A stretch of DNA of 64,000 nt from Candidatus Nomurabacteria bacterium (GCA_020631855.1 JACKGU010000001.1:295601-359600); one strand, 5' to 3'; shown: positions 18,819-46,191, numbered from the stretch's first letter. The notes: a model not told the origin generated them from the sequence alone. Program-made: numbers and translations.

Positions 18819-19322
18819 ATGGGATATATACTCGACCTTGATACCGTTGTTTATATCTCACAAGACCTTAGAAGAAGAAAAAAGAAAATAATATACACCC
18901 ACGGAAGCTTCGATCTATTTCATTCCGGACACTCATACCTATTTAATAAAGCAAAAAAACTGGGCGACGTATTAATAGTAGGCGTAGATTCTGACGAAAA
19001 AGTAAGGAAATTTAAAGGGGAGAGAAGACCGGTAAATCAGCACTCGCTTAGAGCTGAGATGGTAAACAACCATAAAGATGTTGATATAGTCTTTTCAATA
19101 GAAGGGTTAGCAGAAAACGAGGAAGATTACTATGTTGGACTATATAAAAAGCTATCTCCGCACATCGTCGTTGTAGGAAACTCTTTTGGGTTTCGGAACA
19201 ATTTCAGAAAGAAACTTGCAAACACTGAGTTCGTTTTAATAGATCTTTTACCCGAACACCAGATCTCTACCACCGACATAATTCAAAAAGTATTAGATAC
19301 GCACGTAGAAAAGTCCGAGTAG
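18819..19322 (+). CDS. Cytidylyltransferase-family nucleotidyltransferase (TagD/RfaE-II-like); real start probably internal/non-ATG
   Basis: KKIIYTHGSFDLFHSGH (HxGH motif) typical of glycerol-3-P cytidylyltransferase-like fold. Confidence 0.55.
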   Translation: MGYILDLDTVVYISQDLRRRKKKIIYTHGSFDLFHSGHSYLFNKAKKLGDVLIVGVDSDEKVRKFKGERRPVNQHSLRAEMVNNHKDVDIVFSIEGLAENEEDYYVGLYKKLSPHIVVVGNSFGFRNNFRKKLANTEFVLIDLLPEHQISTTDIIQKVLDTHVEKSE

Positions 19323-20114
19323 AACCAAAACAATAAGAATCCTATAGACTATAAAGGTTGTTAAAGAATTGTTACGCAAAAATTTCATTAAAAAGCTTAT
19401 TGCTAAAATTCCGGTTATAAAGCTCGATAGAAAACCAACAACTACAAGCAGGCCGCCCAATTGCTGAAGACTTTCAAAAGAGGAATAGATTTTATACAAA
19501 GCGGCGCCGAGTATAGTGGGAATAGCCATAATAAAAGAGAATCTTGCCGCTTCTTTTCTGCTTAAACCAACGATCATGCCTCCGGAGATTGTGGATCCTG
19601 ATCTGGAGAAACCTGGCAACAAGGCGAGCATCTCAAAAAGTCCTATTGCGATTGATTTTTTTAAGGTAAGTTCTGACTTAGTTTCGATACGAGCAAATCT
19701 TTTTTCAGCCACGTACATTAAAATCGTGCCTAAAAGCAAAAAGAGCTCGACCCACAAAGCACTTCTAAAAACTTGTTCGAGAGTAGCATCTAATACAATA
19801 CCGGCGATACCTGCAGGAATAACTGCAACCAGAGCAAATAAGCCGTACTTTCCAGATCGGGAATATTCTTGCAACTTGTTTCTTTTTTGAGCAATGTTGA
19901 AAAATAAAGCCTTGGCAATATCCAAAAGATCGCGAAAAAAATACACTATAAGAGCAACCGAGGTTCCCACATGCAGGACCAAATCAAATGCCAAAGACTG
20001 CTCATTCCAGCGTAGAAGATAGGGTAAAAGAATGAGATGTCCTGAGGACGAAATAGGTAGAAACTCGCTAAGACCCTGAATAGTTCCTAAAACCAGTGCT
20101 TGAAAAATTGTCAT
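19293..20114 (-). CDS. uppP: Undecaprenyl-diphosphatase
   Basis: 273 aa, about 8 TM; LSEFLPISSSGHL signature. Confidence 0.9.
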   Translation of the reverse strand: MTIFQALVLGTIQGLSEFLPISSSGHLILLPYLLRWNEQSLAFDLVLHVGTSVALIVYFFRDLLDIAKALFFNIAQKRNKLQEYSRSGKYGLFALVAVIPAGIAGIVLDATLEQVFRSALWVELFLLLGTILMYVAEKRFARIETKSELTLKKSIAIGLFEMLALLPGFSRSGSTISGGMIVGLSRKEAARFSFIMAIPTILGAALYKIYSSFESLQQLGGLLVVVGFLSSFITGILAISFLMKFLRNNSLTTFIVYRILIVLVLLGLFYVRI

Positions 20115-22164: not shown

Positions 22165-22578
22165 AATTTATTCCTAAAATATAAATAACTACTAACCGGG
22201 GATTGAGAATAAAAAACCCCCTGGTTTTACCCAAGAGGCTCAATACTAATGTATTGAAGGTGCCAGCCTTCTTCATACTTATTAACAGCTATAACGGGCA
22301 TTCCCGACTTGGCATTTCCTCCAAGCAGCTCCGTGATTGGAAAATTCACATCAAAGCTTTTTTAGTTTTTTTATACAAACAAACTCAATTATTTGTTAGT
22401 CTGTGTTCGTAAATATAACAATTAAGTGGTCGAGATTCAACCAGTAAATACTTTTTTTAGCAACGATTGATTGCTTTACAGGTCTGCAATCAACACTAAG
22501 AAATGATCCGGACGAAAAACCTGTTCAAACGGTAAGAGCTGGGGAAGAAGCGCAGAAACTTAAATGTTTAATCCCTAT
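22165..22578 (-). promoter_or_regulatory. Long (about 410 nt) structured 5' leader of serS; possible T-box-like attenuator, or an independent ncRNA
   Basis: Non-coding; intrinsic terminator at 22211-22237 (minus) about 47 nt before serS AUG, followed by UAGGA SD; minus-strand motif GAAGG-CUGGCACC-UUC (22271->22256) resembles T-box bulge UGGNACC with N=C matching tRNA-Ser G73. Confidence 0.3.
22211..22237 (-). terminator. Intrinsic terminator/attenuator hairpin upstream of serS (CUCUUGG-guaaaa-CCAGGGGG + UUUUUU, two G-U pairs)
   Basis: Read on minus strand: GAGCCTCTTGGGTAAAACCAGGGGGTTTTTTATTC. Confidence 0.45.
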
Positions 22579-24696
22579 CTATTTGGCTTGATTTTTGTAA
22601 ACATTGATCAAAAACTCTACATGTGCATCAAAACCCTCACCTAGTTGTTCAACACCATATAAAATCTCTTCACGATCAATTTTAGCCGCAAAAGCCCTAT
22701 CTTTAAATTTCTTCTTTACTGACGATACTTTCATGCCGTCGTAACCTTCGGGGCGCATCAATGCGTACGCATATAGAAATCCGGCCATCTCATCCACGGC
22801 AATAAGCGCAGAGGCCAGCCTGGTCTGAGGTTTTACATTGGTTCTCATGTGAGCATGAGCTGCAACTGCATGAATTAAACTCTCAGGATAGTTTCTCTCT
22901 TTAAACCATTCTAATGATTTTGCAGGATGCTCATCAGGGTATTCAAAATAATCAAGGTCATGTAATAAACCTGTGATATACCAGAGTTCGCGATCTTCAT
23001 TGAATTTTTCAGCATATGCTTCAAGACCGCGGGCGATCATAAGAGCATGCTGTATTTGATAGCTGTCCTTGACATGGTCCCGTAAAAGCGCCTCCGCCTC
23101 CTTTCTAGAAGGTAGAAATCCCTCGGAGCTAATGTATAAACTCTCGTTTAAATCAGTTTTACTTAGAGAGTCTTCTACTAGAGGATCGCTCTTGGATAAC
23201 CCGTAGATTTCAGCGTTTGCATCGTCGTAAACATGCTTCAATTGAGGAAATGGAACTCCTTCCCTTGCTGTAACATCCTCTAAAAACCAAAAAACTCTTT
23301 CTGAATGACCATAACCAAATGTCGGCGGCATGCCGTATTCAAGCATTTCAACATAATCAATATCGAGCCACTGCGCTTCCGAATCACCGGAATCTCTCAT
23401 TGACTGCTGTTCCGAAAATCGTTCAAACTGATCCAAGCCACTATTTATTTCCGACCAGCCATTTCCGAGTTCGGAGCCGGCAATAATTGGCTGGAAACGC
23501 TCTGTTATTCTGGTATCTTTTGGGTTCGCCTTTGCTAACGGCGACAAATACTTAGGGTGATTAATTAAAAAGGCAGGCCCCCCAATAGTTCTACGTATTT
23601 CTTTCCAAAGAGCGTCCACTAATCGTGGCCGATTCTCTGTCTCTGCCTTTATTCCGGCTTTTTCGCAAGCTAGCTTTAAATCTTCAATACTTGAATTGTG
23701 TACGTCTACTCCATATCTCTGCTTCATGATGTCAGAGAAATCAATCCTTTCCCACTCTTTTTTGGAGAAATCAACTTCAAAACCCCTAATACTGAACTTC
23801 TTCTTATCTCCGTAAAGAGATTCAATCACGTAATTAAAAAGGTCTTGAATAAAATCCATACCTGATTGCCAATCAGCGTAAGCCCAATAAACCTCCATCG
23901 CCATGTGTTCGGGAAGATGCTCGTCGGATAAACCCTCATTTCTGAATCTTGGGCCTATTTCATAAACTTTTTCATAGCCCCCTCCAATTAATCTTTTCAA
24001 AAAAAGTTCATGGGAAATTCTAAGATAAAGAGTCTCATCGATGGAGTCCATATGAGTCACAAAAGGATTCGCGTCTGCCCCTCCGGGCACTGCTTCTAAA
24101 ACAGGAATATTAATCTCATAGAAACCCCTTTTTTCAAAAAACTCGCGATGAGCAGCCCAAAACTTAGAACGTCTAATGTATCTATCACGAACATCATCAT
24201 TTATCCTTGTATCTAGATATCTTTTACGCATTCTGGTCTCTCTGTCTTTAAGCCCATCGTGCTTGTCGGGCAATGGTCTAAGGGATTTGGCCAATATTCT
24301 TATGCTGTGGGGCTCTATAGACTGCTCGCCGCTATTTGTTATTACTAAAGCTCCCTTGCACTCTATATAATCTCCAATATCTAATAAATCCAGCTCAGAG
24401 TAGGATATTTCACTATTTTTGTGTTCAACTTTTTCAAGATTTTGTTCCTTAATATATACCTGAATTGTGCCTGAAAAATCTTTTATATCAAAAAATGTCA
24501 GCTTTCCATGTCTTCTCAACGACATGATCCAACCGGCTAAAATTACTTCCTTTCCCCCAAGTTTGCCAAAGCTGCTTATAACTTCAGAGATTAGGTGGGT
24601 CCTAAAAGACGTTGCCGGATAAGGATCAACGCCTAGATCTTGAAGATTTTTAAGTTTTTGTAATCTTACATCCCTTAGCTCTTTTAAAGTGGCCAT
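22579..24696 (-). CDS. lysS: Lysyl-tRNA synthetase (class II) fused to a C-terminal HD-domain (YqeK-like) phosphohydrolase, about 705 aa from MATLKEL
   Basis: Core LysRS (FRNEGLSDEHLPEHMAMEVYWAYADW; ...PPTFGYGHSERVFWFL...VPFPQLKH) ends about residue 510; extra about 215 aa has H...HD...H..H..D pattern (IQHALMIARG...GLLHDLDY...AVAAHAH...AVDEMAGF). Confidence 0.9.
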   Translation of the reverse strand: MATLKELRDVRLQKLKNLQDLGVDPYPATSFRTHLISEVISSFGKLGGKEVILAGWIMSLRRHGKLTFFDIKDFSGTIQVYIKEQNLEKVEHKNSEISYSELDLLDIGDYIECKGALVITNSGEQSIEPHSIRILAKSLRPLPDKHDGLKDRETRMRKRYLDTRINDDVRDRYIRRSKFWAAHREFFEKRGFYEINIPVLEAVPGGADANPFVTHMDSIDETLYLRISHELFLKRLIGGGYEKVYEIGPRFRNEGLSDEHLPEHMAMEVYWAYADWQSGMDFIQDLFNYVIESLYGDKKKFSIRGFEVDFSKKEWERIDFSDIMKQRYGVDVHNSSIEDLKLACEKAGIKAETENRPRLVDALWKEIRRTIGGPAFLINHPKYLSPLAKANPKDTRITERFQPIIAGSELGNGWSEINSGLDQFERFSEQQSMRDSGDSEAQWLDIDYVEMLEYGMPPTFGYGHSERVFWFLEDVTAREGVPFPQLKHVYDDANAEIYGLSKSDPLVEDSLSKTDLNESLYISSEGFLPSRKEAEALLRDHVKDSYQIQHALMIARGLEAYAEKFNEDRELWYITGLLHDLDYFEYPDEHPAKSLEWFKERNYPESLIHAVAAHAHMRTNVKPQTRLASALIAVDEMAGFLYAYALMRPEGYDGMKVSSVKKKFKDRAFAAKIDREEILYGVEQLGEGFDAHVEFLINVYKNQAK

Positions 24697-24907
24697 TATT
24701 TTATTTCCTAAACTGAATACGTACTTCGCAATTATAACAGAAAAGGGGCAGGTACAAAGCACCCAAAAATAGTGCTAAAACATTTTTACGGCCTAAATTT
24801 TTTTATTTGCTTTTATATTGCTAACCCGAACAAAATTCTTTTAGTACATGGCCTAACCTGCTTATACTAGCCACAAACAACAAAGAACTGTAAAATATCT
24901 GCAGAGT

Positions 24908-25873
24908 ATGAAAAAAATAACTGAAGCTACGATCGCTCAAGGCACTAGGGTTTTTGTGAGTACAGATATAGATGTACCTATAGATAATGGGCATATTAGA
25001 AATACTTTTAGACTCGACCGTGGCTTAGAAACTCTTAAGTACATAGTAGATAAAGGAGCAATCCCAGTAATTGGGGGCCATATAAAAAATCCTCAAGGAA
25101 AATACGATCCCCAGCTTAGTACAGCACCTCTTAAAAAGTATTATAATGAAAAATTAGGGGAGGGTTCTTACGAACTATTAGAAAATCTGCGTTTTGACAT
25201 TAGAGAAGATCAGAATGAGGATACCTACGCACAGGAACTGGCAAATAAAACAGAGGTCTTTGTAAACGAGAATTTTGCAACCTCACATCGAACAAATGCT
25301 TCTTTAGTTGCTATTACTAAATACTTACCTTCATTCGCGGGACTTAATTTGAGCAGAGAAATCGAAGCTTTGGATAAAATACTTATCGACTACAAAAAGC
25401 CTTTTACTGCAGTTATTGGCGGAGCGAAAGTTGAAAGCAAGGCACCTGTTATTGATTCGCTTTGCAACATAGCTGACAATATCCTGCTTGGTGGGAAAAT
25501 AGGCTTAAACTATTCTACGGATAATGCTAGGGTGAGCTCTCCGGCCGACTACGCAGACGGTAATCAAGATATCGGCCCGAAAACAATCCTAAACTATACA
25601 GGATACATACTGTCAGCCCAAACACTTTTATGGGCCGGGCCTATGGGAGCTTATGAAAAAGACGAATTCTGTATTGGTACAAATCTAATCGCAGATGCGA
25701 TAGTGGAAGCAACAAAAGGCGGCGCTTATAGCATAATAGGAGGCGGAGATACGATTACAGCTTATAGCAAGAACCACGCATTGGGAGAAGTAAGTTTTGT
25801 TTCAACAGGAGGAGGGGCCATGCTGACATATCTGGCGCATAAGAATATGCCCGGCATTGAGGCTTTAGGATAA
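24908..25873 (+). CDS. pgk: Phosphoglycerate kinase (short, 321 aa)
   Basis: LENLRF, NENFATSHRTNASL, GGGAMLTYL motifs. Confidence 0.88.
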   Translation: MKKITEATIAQGTRVFVSTDIDVPIDNGHIRNTFRLDRGLETLKYIVDKGAIPVIGGHIKNPQGKYDPQLSTAPLKKYYNEKLGEGSYELLENLRFDIREDQNEDTYAQELANKTEVFVNENFATSHRTNASLVAITKYLPSFAGLNLSREIEALDKILIDYKKPFTAVIGGAKVESKAPVIDSLCNIADNILLGGKIGLNYSTDNARVSSPADYADGNQDIGPKTILNYTGYILSAQTLLWAGPMGAYEKDEFCIGTNLIADAIVEATKGGAYSIIGGGDTITAYSKNHALGEVSFVSTGGGAMLTYLAHKNMPGIEALG

Positions 25874-25876
25874 ATT

Positions 25877-26179
25877 ATGGCAAAAAGTTTAAAAGTTCAG
25901 TTTCCGGAACGTTGCATAGGCTGCGAACTGTGCATCATGGAAATACAAAGACAGCTTAAAAAACACGGCCTCGAAGGTTCTCTGATTAGAGTTTTTAAAA
26001 GTGCCAAAGAAGGAAAAGAAATATGCGAGACTCTGGAATACTCAATAGATCTAGACCCGAGCATAAATTCATACGACATTGAACAAATTAGGAAAATTTG
26101 CCCAAAAAGTGTTTTTGTTGTGGCCGACATGACAGAAGAAGAGAACTACGAAGACGCTCTGCTGGAACAGAAAGATTAA
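25877..26179 (+). CDS. Small ferredoxin-like protein (CxxCxxC ... CP)
   Basis: ERCIGCELC then distal ICPKS; 100 aa; tightly packed between pgk and AOR-like gene. Confidence 0.5.
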   Translation: MAKSLKVQFPERCIGCELCIMEIQRQLKKHGLEGSLIRVFKSAKEGKEICETLEYSIDLDPSINSYDIEQIRKICPKSVFVVADMTEEENYEDALLEQKD

Positions 26180-26181
26180 AT

Positions 26182-27015
26182 ATGCATAAATCAGTCTTAT
26201 TTGTTAATTTAAAAAATAAAACATACGAGGTTAAAAAATTTGACGAACTCGCAAAATACATAGGAGGAGTTGCTGTTGGATTTAAACTTCTTCTTGATAA
26301 TATAGAGCACGATCCAATTATATTTTCTATCGGACCTTTGAACGGCGTGTTTCCTTTCGCATCAAAAACTTCTATCGTTCTGCATAACAATGGCGTAGTC
26401 GAAGACTTATATATCGGGGGTTCCCTAAGCTCCAGAATGGCCTTTTCCGGGGTTGACTCCATAGTATTTATAGAATCCGCAGAAGAGCCCACATACGTTG
26501 AAATAACGAATGAGGAAGTGTTCTTTAAACCAATAACAACTGATATAGATTCTTTAGGATTACCGGGGAAAAGATCAGTTTTAAAACCAATTAAAAATAA
26601 ATACTTTTTAGATGATTATTTTTTAACTCCGGAGTTATTTTTTGAAGAAAAGCTTGCAAAGAAAAATGTAGGAGGAATAGTGTTAACAGGAACAAAAACA
26701 CGTGAAATAAAAAATCCTGAAAAATATAAGGAACTTTTACACGAAATATTAGGTAAAAAGTCTTTAATGGAAATAGATGAGGGAGATAGCCCCTCTTGCA
26801 CATTTTGTCCAATGGGGTGCTCAAAGTCTCGTACCGGAGAAATTGGAGGAAACATATTGGTACACAGCATGGTGGGATGCAAGCTTAGCCAAAAAATATA
26901 CAGCGACGTGGGAACAATTTTTTCTTGCTTGAGTGTGTTGGGCTATTCCTACACACACGAAGATATTGAAGACCTGCCTCTTCTGGTAAAAGAGGTACTG
27001 GAAAAATTAAATTAA
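26182..27015 (+). CDS. Aldehyde:ferredoxin oxidoreductase (AOR)-family protein, truncated: N-terminal domain + [4Fe-4S] CxxCxxxC motif only (about 277 aa)
   Basis: MHKSVLFVNLKNKTYEVKKFDELAKYIGGVAVGFKLLL...IFSIGPLNG...ASKTSIV...FSGVDSIVFIESAEEPTYVEI aligns with P. furiosus AOR N-domain; CTFCPMGC matches AOR cluster motif CxxCPxGC; ends at tpiA start. Confidence 0.65.
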   Translation: MHKSVLFVNLKNKTYEVKKFDELAKYIGGVAVGFKLLLDNIEHDPIIFSIGPLNGVFPFASKTSIVLHNNGVVEDLYIGGSLSSRMAFSGVDSIVFIESAEEPTYVEITNEEVFFKPITTDIDSLGLPGKRSVLKPIKNKYFLDDYFLTPELFFEEKLAKKNVGGIVLTGTKTREIKNPEKYKELLHEILGKKSLMEIDEGDSPSCTFCPMGCSKSRTGEIGGNILVHSMVGCKLSQKIYSDVGTIFSCLSVLGYSYTHEDIEDLPLLVKEVLEKLN

Positions 27016-27671
27016 TGAAATATTTAGTAGCAAACTGGAAATCTAATATGACAGTCTCCGAGGTTATTGTCTGGCTAAAAGCTTGGGATAAACTAATAAA
27101 AAGCGCAGAGAGTAATGATGCGGTAAGAGTTTTAGTAGCCCCTTGTTTTATACATCTTCCATTATTTACCGGTCTGGAAAATATTTATTCTTGCGGGCAG
27201 GATGTCTCGGAGAACAGCGTAGGGCCTTATACCGGATACGTGAATGCTACACAGCTAAGGGAATTCGCTGATTACAGCATAGTCGGGCACAGCGAAAGAA
27301 ATGAAGACTCTGAAACAGTTGTCAAAAAGATTAATCAGTGTAGAAATAACGGAATTGAGGCCATTGCTTGTTTCACTCACACTGAAAATGCAACAGAGTA
27401 TTCAAAATTCACAAAGATCTTAGCTTGGGAGGACCCTGAAAATATATCAAAACAAGGAAAGTATGCAGAATTAAGGTATGGTGAAATAAATCACTCTATT
27501 GAAAAAATTTACTCTAATATTGAACCCGATACTGTGTTATTATACGGAGGCTCTGTTAACTCGAATAATATTAGCGAATTAACTAGAATTAAGAGTATAT
27601 CGGGGTTTTTAGTAGGAAACGCAAGTCTGGACGTGGCTCACTTTTATAAGCTATACTGCTCCATGATCTAG
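27015..27671 (+). CDS. tpiA: Triosephosphate isomerase
   Basis: VANWKSN, IVGHSERN motifs; 218 aa. Confidence 0.9.
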   Translation: MKYLVANWKSNMTVSEVIVWLKAWDKLIKSAESNDAVRVLVAPCFIHLPLFTGLENIYSCGQDVSENSVGPYTGYVNATQLREFADYSIVGHSERNEDSETVVKKINQCRNNGIEAIACFTHTENATEYSKFTKILAWEDPENISKQGKYAELRYGEINHSIEKIYSNIEPDTVLLYGGSVNSNNISELTRIKSISGFLVGNASLDVAHFYKLYCSMI

Positions 27672-45507: not shown

Positions 45508-46191
45508 GTGTTCCAGCCCATACAGATTAATATGCAGATAGAAAACTACGACAATAATCAAATAGCCGAGCTTTTGCGTGATGCAAAAAGCGTTGGCATA
45601 ATAGCCTCAAGACTAAATCAACCGGATACTTTCTGTGCCGCTTCTGGACTCTACTTGATGCTCAAAAATACGTTCGAAGACAAAGAAATTAAACTTATTT
45701 ACAAAGGCGACATCCCCACAGAATGCAGCAATTTAATAAATAGCGAAGACGTTCACGCCAATGTCGATGAGAGAGACTTGGTAGTGACTGTGAACTACAA
45801 AGGGACAAGCGCATCAAAGGTACAATATAGCACTGAAGACGGAGTATTTCAGTTCAGGCTCGGCCCTGTGCCGAAATATTTTGATTTGGGCAACATTCAA
45901 AGCGTACTTTCAGGATTCGACTTCGATGTTGTGGTTACCATAGGTATTCCTGACCTCGAGGTAACAGGGAGTCTATACAGTAGCCTGAAGCACGAACTTA
46001 GCAGCGCAAAAATTGTAAACATAGACAATACAGGACTAAATAAAAGGTTTGGGAGCGTCAATGTAATTGATACGCAAGCAAGCTCACTTAGTACACTGGT
46101 CTTTAATTTAGCGGCAGAATGGAAACTCAAACCAACTGCAAAATCTGCAAAAATGCTGTTAGTAGGGGTTTCATCTACAAGCATAGACTAG
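45508..46191 (+). CDS. Degenerate DHH-family (NrnA/CnpB-like) protein lacking DHH catalytic triad and DHHA1 domain
   Basis: SVGIIASRLNQPDTFCAASGLYLML (motif I/II-like), IVNIDNTG where DHH expected; position downstream of infB matches known infB-rbfA-nrnA synteny in other phyla. Confidence 0.4.
   Translation: MFQPIQINMQIENYDNNQIAELLRDAKSVGIIASRLNQPDTFCAASGLYLMLKNTFEDKEIKLIYKGDIPTECSNLINSEDVHANVDERDLVVTVNYKGTSASKVQYSTEDGVFQFRLGPVPKYFDLGNIQSVLSGFDFDVVVTIGIPDLEVTGSLYSSLKHELSSAKIVNIDNTGLNKRFGSVNVIDTQASSLSTLVFNLAAEWKLKPTAKSAKMLLVGVSSTSID

Follow-up and report, generated by a model that had tools for sequence, protein, structure and literature searches.

In the window analysed here, a 64,000-nt stretch of Candidatus Nomurabacteria DNA, a single polypeptide comprises an intact class II lysyl-tRNA synthetase (LysRS), a flexible linker of ~27 aa and an HD phosphohydrolase domain which, judged by its dinuclear-type ligand set, looks catalytically competent. 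In LysRS-HD, the synthetase thus bears an additional catalytic domain, drawn from an HDIG hydrolase family related to YqeK. We regard the fusion architecture and its evolutionary origin as close to certain, and infer that the substrate of the HD domain is related to LysRS chemistry. A literature search yielded no paper on a LysRS-HD fusion or on this HD family, a passing mention in the original YqeK paper being possible, and nothing relevant on COG2316 or DUF2000; the impression of the earlier note, made from the sequence of the window, that this architecture had not been described is in line with the literature we found. LysRS-HD is nonetheless visible in sequence databases, labelled only 'lysine--tRNA ligase' or 'HD domain-containing protein', which leaves its putative bifunctionality hidden.

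Domain layout and integrity of the fused gene

The fusion is encoded by a minus-strand open reading frame (22579..24762) that would yield 727 aa if started at GTG. Translation very probably begins instead at the ATG at 24696, giving a protein of 705 aa: an AGGAAA Shine-Dalgarno-like motif lies 8 nt upstream of this codon, with a TATAAT box further upstream, homologues start with MATLKELR, and the NCBI entry is likewise the 705-aa form. LysRS homology stops at ...VPFPQLKH, after which the frame runs on for ~217 residues; both this in-frame extension and its bounds (22579-23230, minus strand) had been read correctly in the earlier note. The coordinates of the individual parts and the six ligand codons were checked by translation (Table 1).

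In the 727-aa numbering, Pfam models place tRNA_anti-codon at residues 73-157, tRNA-synt_2 at 174-507 and HD at 570-651, and all three domains (OB, class II core and HD) exceed their gathering scores. The HD match (PF01966) reaches 34.4 bits against a cut-off of 22, and the NCBIfam HDIG model TIGR00277 also scores above its cut-off, bearing out the assignment of the extension to HD-domain proteins. Alignment of the LysRS half with Geobacillus LysRS 3A74 extends over the full length (E = 3e-99). The NCBIfam lysS scores of this half fall fractionally under the cut-offs (427.1 versus 427.6 for TIGR00499; 464 versus 468 for PRK00484), a shortfall that divergent CPR sequences would be expected to show; the 64-kb window contains only this one lysS. 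In the full-length AF2 model, pLDDT is ~90 for LysRS and 85-95 for the HD domain, and drops below 50 for residues 503-521. Modelled alone, the HD domain attains a pLDDT of 95.6 and a pTM of 0.91, so that the extension is predicted to be well folded and is not of low complexity. Separate translation of the HD domain from an internal start was considered and rejected: an AAGGAGG sequence within the KEAEA codons is followed by no in-frame start.

Table 1. Features of the lysS-HD gene in the window (residue numbers of the HD patch in domain numbering)
Feature	Coordinates	Strand	Evidence
Whole lysS-HD fusion gene, 705 aa plus TAG stop	22579..24696	-	ORF listing, start context, translation check
Alternative upstream GTG of the lysS-HD gene	24762	-	would yield 727 aa
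LysRS N-terminal OB-fold anticodon-binding domain	24292..24546	-	Pfam PF01336, 52.5 bits; alignable to Geobacillus LysRS 3A74
Class II aminoacyl-tRNA synthetase catalytic core (LysRS)	23242..24243	-	Pfam PF00152, 201 bits; AF2 pLDDT ~90
Usual C-terminal tail of clade LysRS, LKHVYDDANAEIYGL	23197..23241	-	unfused relatives stop a few residues past ...EIYGL
27-aa interdomain linker, SKSDPLVEDSLSKTDLNESLYISSEGF	23116..23196	-	junction comparison; AF2
HD (HDIG-type) phosphohydrolase domain, 178 aa, predicted dinuclear metal site	22582..23115	-	
Candidate polyphosphate- or nucleic-acid-binding patch	22672..22722	-	near-invariant K140, K143, F147, A148, R153

We assign virtually no weight to the possibility that the fusion is an artefact of this assembly, two genes having been joined through a frameshift, the loss of a stop codon or a misassembly. 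Close relatives do carry two separate genes, and a homopolymer indel is plainly visible in the lysS of one metagenome contig (L001). However, the identical 705-aa protein (P0390) was found on 11 contigs of up to 630 kb from ENA, Logan and NCBI, which derive from independent samples and assemblers and always show the same neighbours; these sources include four GenBank records from WWE3/Patescibacteria MAGs. Furthermore, a full-length search recovered >100 distinct clusters (90% identity level) of LysRS-HD proteins of ~700 aa, with 48-66% identity and the same open junction, stemming from Dojkabacteria, WWE3 and 'Patescibacteria group' MAGs and carrying the name 'lysine--tRNA ligase' where any name is given; 12 fused loci were also present among the best 80 HD loci in GTDB species representatives. 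Misassembly is rejected on the strength of the 11 contigs with the identical protein and the >100 diverged orthologues, which confirm that the junction is open and that the fusion described in the earlier note recurs in relatives (WWE3, Dojkabacteria and other Patescibacteria).

The HD family and its relation to YqeK

The H..HD..H..H..D spacing noticed earlier in the segments IQHALMIARG, GLLHDLDY, AVAAHAH and AVDEMAGF is indeed there, and the corresponding ligands H28, H57-D58, H68, H92 and D113 in domain numbering (H550, H579-D580, H590, H614 and D635 in the 705-aa numbering) are invariant in alignments of 21, 53 and 32 sequences. Fused and free forms alike have these ligands invariant or at least 90% conserved, indicating strong purifying selection on the predicted catalytic set in both. 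Also conserved in the family are D60, E114 and a basic motif, KKKxKDKxFAAxxxR, with K140, K143, F147, A148 and R153 invariant or nearly so in all three alignments. The pattern H..HD..D is that of mononuclear HD proteins, whereas two extra His residues characterise dinuclear enzymes such as YqeK (PMC8177086), and the HD domain is predicted to be of the dinuclear type.

The nearest relatives of the extension are stand-alone HD proteins of ~180 aa from WWE3 and Dojkabacteria, with 60-70% identity, but the domain belongs to a large uncharacterised HDIG family reaching well past CPR. A search of 1.84 billion representatives returned 2,682 clusters (counted at 50% identity) at E < 1e-3, of which 937 pass E < 1e-10; most are 180-200 aa long. 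Members without lysS linkage were encountered in Opitutaceae (including the cultured Oleiharenicola lentus), Solirubrobacterales, Caldilineaceae, Rhodothermales, Bacteroidota and other Patescibacteria. The neighbours of the HD genes outside CPR are lineage-specific (hisZ/hisG, murA and an IDH-like gene in Solirubrobacterales) and give no pointer to function, as far as the noisy ORF calls in high-GC loci allow. Among ten family representatives with an N-terminal extension but no detected LysRS match, eight yielded no partner domain, one proved to have a short LysRS remnant and one a MazG domain.

The earlier note had considered the extension to resemble YqeK-type domains most, a claim that stands with respect to proximity and falls with respect to membership: by sequence, YqeK is the nearest characterised relative, and the HD domain is a separate family, a distant cousin. 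When PDB sequences were searched with a 53-sequence profile, the top five matches all belonged to the YqeK family (8jja, E = 4e-6; 2ogi, 2e-5; 8wmy, 1e-4; 2o08, 5e-4; 3ccg, 6e-4), followed by HDOD, 2pq7 and PgpH; the single sequence and a narrow 21-sequence profile gave no significant match to PDB sequences, YqeK being reached only by the 53-sequence profile. At the level of structure, Foldseek against PDB produced weak generic HD matches (best E of at least 2e-3, TM about 0.5). Comparison by hhalign with a YqeK N-terminal profile resulted in a probability of 91.5% (E = 8.8e-7) over 78 columns, and covers the N-terminal half of YqeK only (fragments of up to 100 aa; 58-aa BH1327 seed). The ligands map to YqeK as H28=H21, H57-D58=H50-D51, H92=H109 and D113=D127, with HMMER domain 2 supplying only H92 to H109 and D113 to D127; R133, F135 and F163, through which YqeK contacts the distal nucleotide and phosphate, lie in the half outside the hhalign alignment. 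YqeK (COG1713/TIGR00488), which in Firmicutes cleaves Ap4A/Np4N symmetrically and removes Np4 caps, resembles the HD domain in being all-helical, in its size of ~180-190 aa and in the six-residue H..HD..H..H..D dinuclear pattern; it is also tied to LysRS chemistry, Ap4A being a LysRS by-product.

The leading position of YqeK structures among the PDB matches, the hhalign result and the shared ligand pattern and size could also be taken to signify a bona fide YqeK orthologue that has diverged through the fast evolution of CPR, but we judge this highly improbable. The TIGR00488 YqeK equivalog does not match the fusion protein at E <= 1, and matches only 12 of 53 relatives, all below threshold, the best (E = 2e-4) falling far short of an equivalog score. 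Indeed, in family-model scans of the 53 members, generic HDIG alone exceeded its threshold, and the other sub-threshold matches went to RNase Y (29 members), TIGR00295 (26), Trm56-HD PRK12703 (24) and NadD-HD PRK07152 (24). Whereas yqeK is associated with nadD in the yqeJ-yqeK operon, the HD domain is fused or adjacent to lysS, and only one cytidylyltransferase-like gene occurs in the window (18819..19322), on the opposite strand at a distance of 3.3 kb. The phosphate-binding residues of YqeK, R18 and K54 of the HDxxK motif (PMC13627108), align in hhalign with conserved Y24 and Y61 of the HD family, which has HDLDY in place of HDxxK. The third ligand His is at +10 from the HD dyad rather than at +32, identity to YqeK is only 13-17%, and the basic motif has no YqeK equivalent in the alignable part. 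Finally, the HD family exists in non-CPR bacteria as a conserved lineage of its own.

Origin and recurrence of the lysS-HD linkage

A syntenic WWE3 genome (L002) contains the gene order greA - lysS (505 aa) - HD (183 aa) - serS - speE-like - uppP - secA, which is that of the window except that lysS and HD are separate in L002. At the L002 junction, LysRS ends with ...EIYGLSEDVK and a stop codon, and 85 nt of AT-rich spacer separate it from the start of the HD protein, MAKLPTREEA..., whereas the window reads ...EIYGLSKSDPLVEDSLSKTDLNESLYISSEGFLPSRKEAE... with no interruption; other unfused LysRS (P0224, P0226, P0234 and P0239) finish at ...EIYG(L/I). From the comparison of the two junctions it follows that the 27-aa linker sits where unfused relatives have the stop codon, the spacer and the start codon. 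The linkers in 32 fusions measure 15-34 aa and are hydrophilic and unconserved. The fusion arose through loss of the stop codon and the short spacer between lysS and a stand-alone HD gene located directly downstream.

Among the best 80 HD loci in GTDB species representatives, lysS lies immediately upstream of the HD gene in 16, comprising the 12 loci with one ORF and 4 with separate genes. A reversed architecture, HD-LysRS, with the HD domain at the N-terminus, is represented by a cluster of 8 members (P0386, 715 aa), and further variants include LysRS-tRNA_bind-HD (P0201/L010), LysRS-HD-DUF2000 (P0179 and P0240) and LysRS-DUF2000-HD (P0241). The DUF2000 domain matches Atu0240/2GAX, which we take to have a PTH2-like fold. 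LysRS parts only 31-59% identical to that of the window are borne by 11 of the 150 family representatives (50% identity), and in a neighbour-joining tree of LysRS domains, computed with no bootstrap and indicative only, unfused proteins are nested among fused ones at no fewer than four places. Both observations suggest that the lysS-HD association is old or recurrent and has been kept through fusion and fission. The pair is kept in WWE3, Dojkabacteria and related Patescibacteria, where it has been fused, fused in the opposite order and, apparently, split again several times. Such repeated fusion, fission and reversal argues for selection holding both activities together, and the recurrent joining of LysRS with a YqeK-related HD domain in both orders provides a Rosetta-stone argument for their being linked.

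Candidate activities and comparison with known systems

LysRS has been recognised as the main source of Ap4A since 1966, and the role of Ap4A, as a regulated signal or a by-product of damage, is still debated. The status of LysRS as the classic Ap4A source, on which the earlier note relied, agrees with the literature (PMC13627108; PMC13010140). In the mechanism we propose, lysyl-adenylate on LysRS would react with ATP or another NTP, in place of tRNA, to give Ap4A/Np4N, and the tethered HD domain would cleave such dinucleoside polyphosphates, and perhaps RNA-borne Np4 caps as well, near where they are formed, thereby serving in these reduced-genome bacteria as a built-in clean-up or limiter of a synthetase side-product. 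We give hydrolysis of LysRS-made Ap4A/Np4N by the HD domain a little under an even chance. Np4N appears to be the best candidate because LysRS is a classic Np4N producer, because the nearest characterised homologue, YqeK, is an Np4N hydrolase, and because the dinuclear ligand set is as in YqeK. The MazG-HD fusion and the acidic character of the domain (pI 5.8), not typical of an RNA-binding module, would also fit a small-nucleotide substrate. On the other side, the YqeK substrate contacts R18 and K54 are not conserved, and most members of the HD family are unlinked to lysS. No ApaH, YqeK or Nudix gene was detected within the 64-kb window, a core housekeeping region encoding ribosomal proteins, EF-Tu/EF-G, RpoBC, SecA, SerRS, PGK/TIM, the DnaK operon, NusA/IF2, PNPase, RNase J and FtsK.

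An extension of the proposal, which we advance more tentatively, is that the HD family may constitute an unrecognised bacterial class of Np4N hydrolases and Np4-decapping enzymes beside ApaH, YqeK and Nudix, tethered to LysRS in many Patescibacteria. If true, LysRS would be a self-limiting alarmone synthase, and in Verrucomicrobiota, Actinomycetota, Chloroflexota and Bacteroidota the missing Ap4A hydrolases would turn out to be several hundred stand-alone family members.

A tRNA-directed alternative is suggested by the insertions of tRNA_bind and DUF2000 and by the top structural match, the HD domain of GlyRS beta. The HD domain of bacterial CCA-adding enzymes heals 2',3'-cyclic-phosphate or 3'-phosphate tRNA ends, and the domain described here might heal such ends of tRNA(Lys) or aid in handling the acceptor arm. 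We consider action on tRNA or RNA unlikely, given that the GlyRS-beta domain lacks the HD dyad, whereas all six ligands are invariant here, and that the scores of the structure comparison form a plateau common to many nucleotide hydrolases, with no specific match. The overall acidity of the domain, the predominance of stand-alone members with no linkage to tRNA genes or enzymes outside CPR, and the MazG-HD fusion, which points toward small nucleotides, also speak against it. Were the substrate nevertheless tRNA or RNA, the HD domain would be a novel type of catalytic module attached to a synthetase.

Alternatively, the HD domain could cleave another nucleotide, such as (p)ppGpp/(p)ppApp, a cyclic dinucleotide, dNTPs or non-canonical NTPs, with the fusion to LysRS serving only co-expression or translational sensing. 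This, too, seems improbable to us: co-expression alone would hardly account for a linkage to lysS that is repeated and bidirectional, through C-terminal fusion, N-terminal fusion and adjacency, across LysRS lineages only 31-38% identical; the domain has no HD-GYP signature, and profile matches favour YqeK over PgpH, HD-GYP and SAH. LysRS-HD offers a one-protein system for asking whether cells actively police synthetase-made Np4N, and our preferred reading, cleavage of LysRS-made Np4N, provides a testable function for the uncharacterised HD family as a whole, whose roughly 2,700 clusters (50% identity) extend well beyond CPR.

Among known systems, the bacterial and plastid GlyRS beta subunit includes an HD domain in which the HD dyad is gone, Ser-Lys standing in its place in E. 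coli, and which works in binding the acceptor arm within a five-domain subunit (PMC8464048). Unlike that domain, which sits between the B3 and anticodon-binding domains of GlyS, in a wholly different context, the one described here keeps all metal ligands, is attached through a disordered tether and also occurs as a free protein. The dinuclear and trinuclear HD phosphodiesterases PgpH and HD-GYP differ in possessing a GYP motif or a 7TM receptor module, neither of which is present here, and their profile matches, like that of 2pq7, an uncharacterised Thermotogales HD hydrolase, are weaker (E = 0.017-0.043) than those of YqeK. In LysX, the MprF-LysRS lysyl-phosphatidylglycerol synthase of mycobacteria, a class II LysRS is joined to a second enzyme that handles a LysRS product, an arrangement that LysRS-HD would share, and the NCBIfam LysX model scores 382 bits against the LysRS part of our protein. 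The partner in LysX, however, is a membrane lysyl-transferase located at the N-terminus, whereas in LysRS-HD it is a soluble, usually C-terminal HD phosphohydrolase.

Fusion partners and neighbours of the HD family

The HD domain found C-terminal to LysRS in lysS-HD also occurs in the opposite arrangement. In P0386, a predicted protein of 715 aa, an HD domain of the same family lies N-terminal to class II LysRS, and this reversed domain order indicates that the HD-LysRS protein is the product of an independent fusion event. The P0386 cluster comprises eight members, on contigs of no more than 85 kb, and the genes upstream of this type of fusion yielded no Pfam matches. Some of the Patescibacteria LysRS-HD fusions (P0179, P0240, P0241 and P0201, the last at locus L010) contain a third domain, for a total length of 860-890 aa; this is either DUF2000 (PF09391, Atu0240/2GAX-like), lying C-terminal or N-terminal to HD, or tRNA_bind (PF01588), inserted between LysRS and HD. 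The family representative P0316 (310 aa) combines an N-terminal MazG nucleotide pyrophosphohydrolase domain with the HD domain, a domain composition that further hints at a nucleotide house-cleaning role for the family.

Upstream of the free HD gene in Solirubrobacterales (L054-L083), crude ORF calls in high-GC DNA recurrently place hisZ, hisG, murA and an isocitrate/isopropylmalate-dehydrogenase-like gene nearby, a neighbourhood that appears to be lineage-specific; hisZ encodes a HisRS paralogue. On one JGI metagenome contig, L001, a 1-nt indel (see the table) breaks the lysS-HD orthologue into ORFs of 347 and 337 aa; an error in sequencing or assembly is the probable cause, and not a genuine split of the gene.

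Other genes of the window

The glycolytic cluster encodes a phosphoglycerate kinase (pgk) of only 321 aa, followed by a 100-aa ferredoxin-like ORF with a CxxCxxC motif and a 277/305-aa protein whose sole domain is AFOR_N, the N-terminal domain of aldehyde:ferredoxin oxidoreductase. The position of this AFOR-like gene, in the usual place of gap, points to a GAPOR-like step that is unusual or truncated. The only nucleotidyltransferase gene near the HD domain, that of the cytidylyltransferase-like protein, does not adjoin it; it is convergent with uppP, overlapping the uppP 3' end by ~30 nt. The ORF following infB, whose only match is a DHH-family hit of 25 bits (cut-off 28), may encode a short NrnA-like phosphoesterase.

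Coordinates of features in the window and at related loci
Feature	Location	Strand	Remarks
Cytidylyltransferase-like gene	window 18819..19322	+	167 aa; PF01467; NadD/CoaD/NMNAT type
uppP	window 19293..20114	-	
Terminator-like hairpin and T-run	window 22241..22214	-	directly 5' of serS start
T-box leader match (RF00230)	window 22233..22363	-	sub-threshold; 37.5 bits vs gathering score 93; E 7e-7, computed for a 501-nt search
pgk, ferredoxin-like ORF, AFOR_N gene, tpi	window 24908..27671	+	in this order
ORF directly 3' of infB	window 45508..46191	+	227 aa; weak sub-threshold DHH-family match
HD-LysRS gene (P0386)	L005 5001..7148; L006 4327..6474		
Three-domain LysRS-HD gene (P0201)	L010 1910..4564		
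1-nt indel in AAAAA run, lysS-HD orthologue	L001 5900..6010		

A candidate T-box upstream of serS

The intergenic gap between lysS-HD and serS spans 414 nt and contains the RF00230 match, which includes the conserved T-box sequence GGCUGGCACC. Stem I is mostly absent from the match (8 nt versus 75 in the model), and the element may be a T-box riboswitch in reduced form, through which this CPR bacterium would regulate serS.
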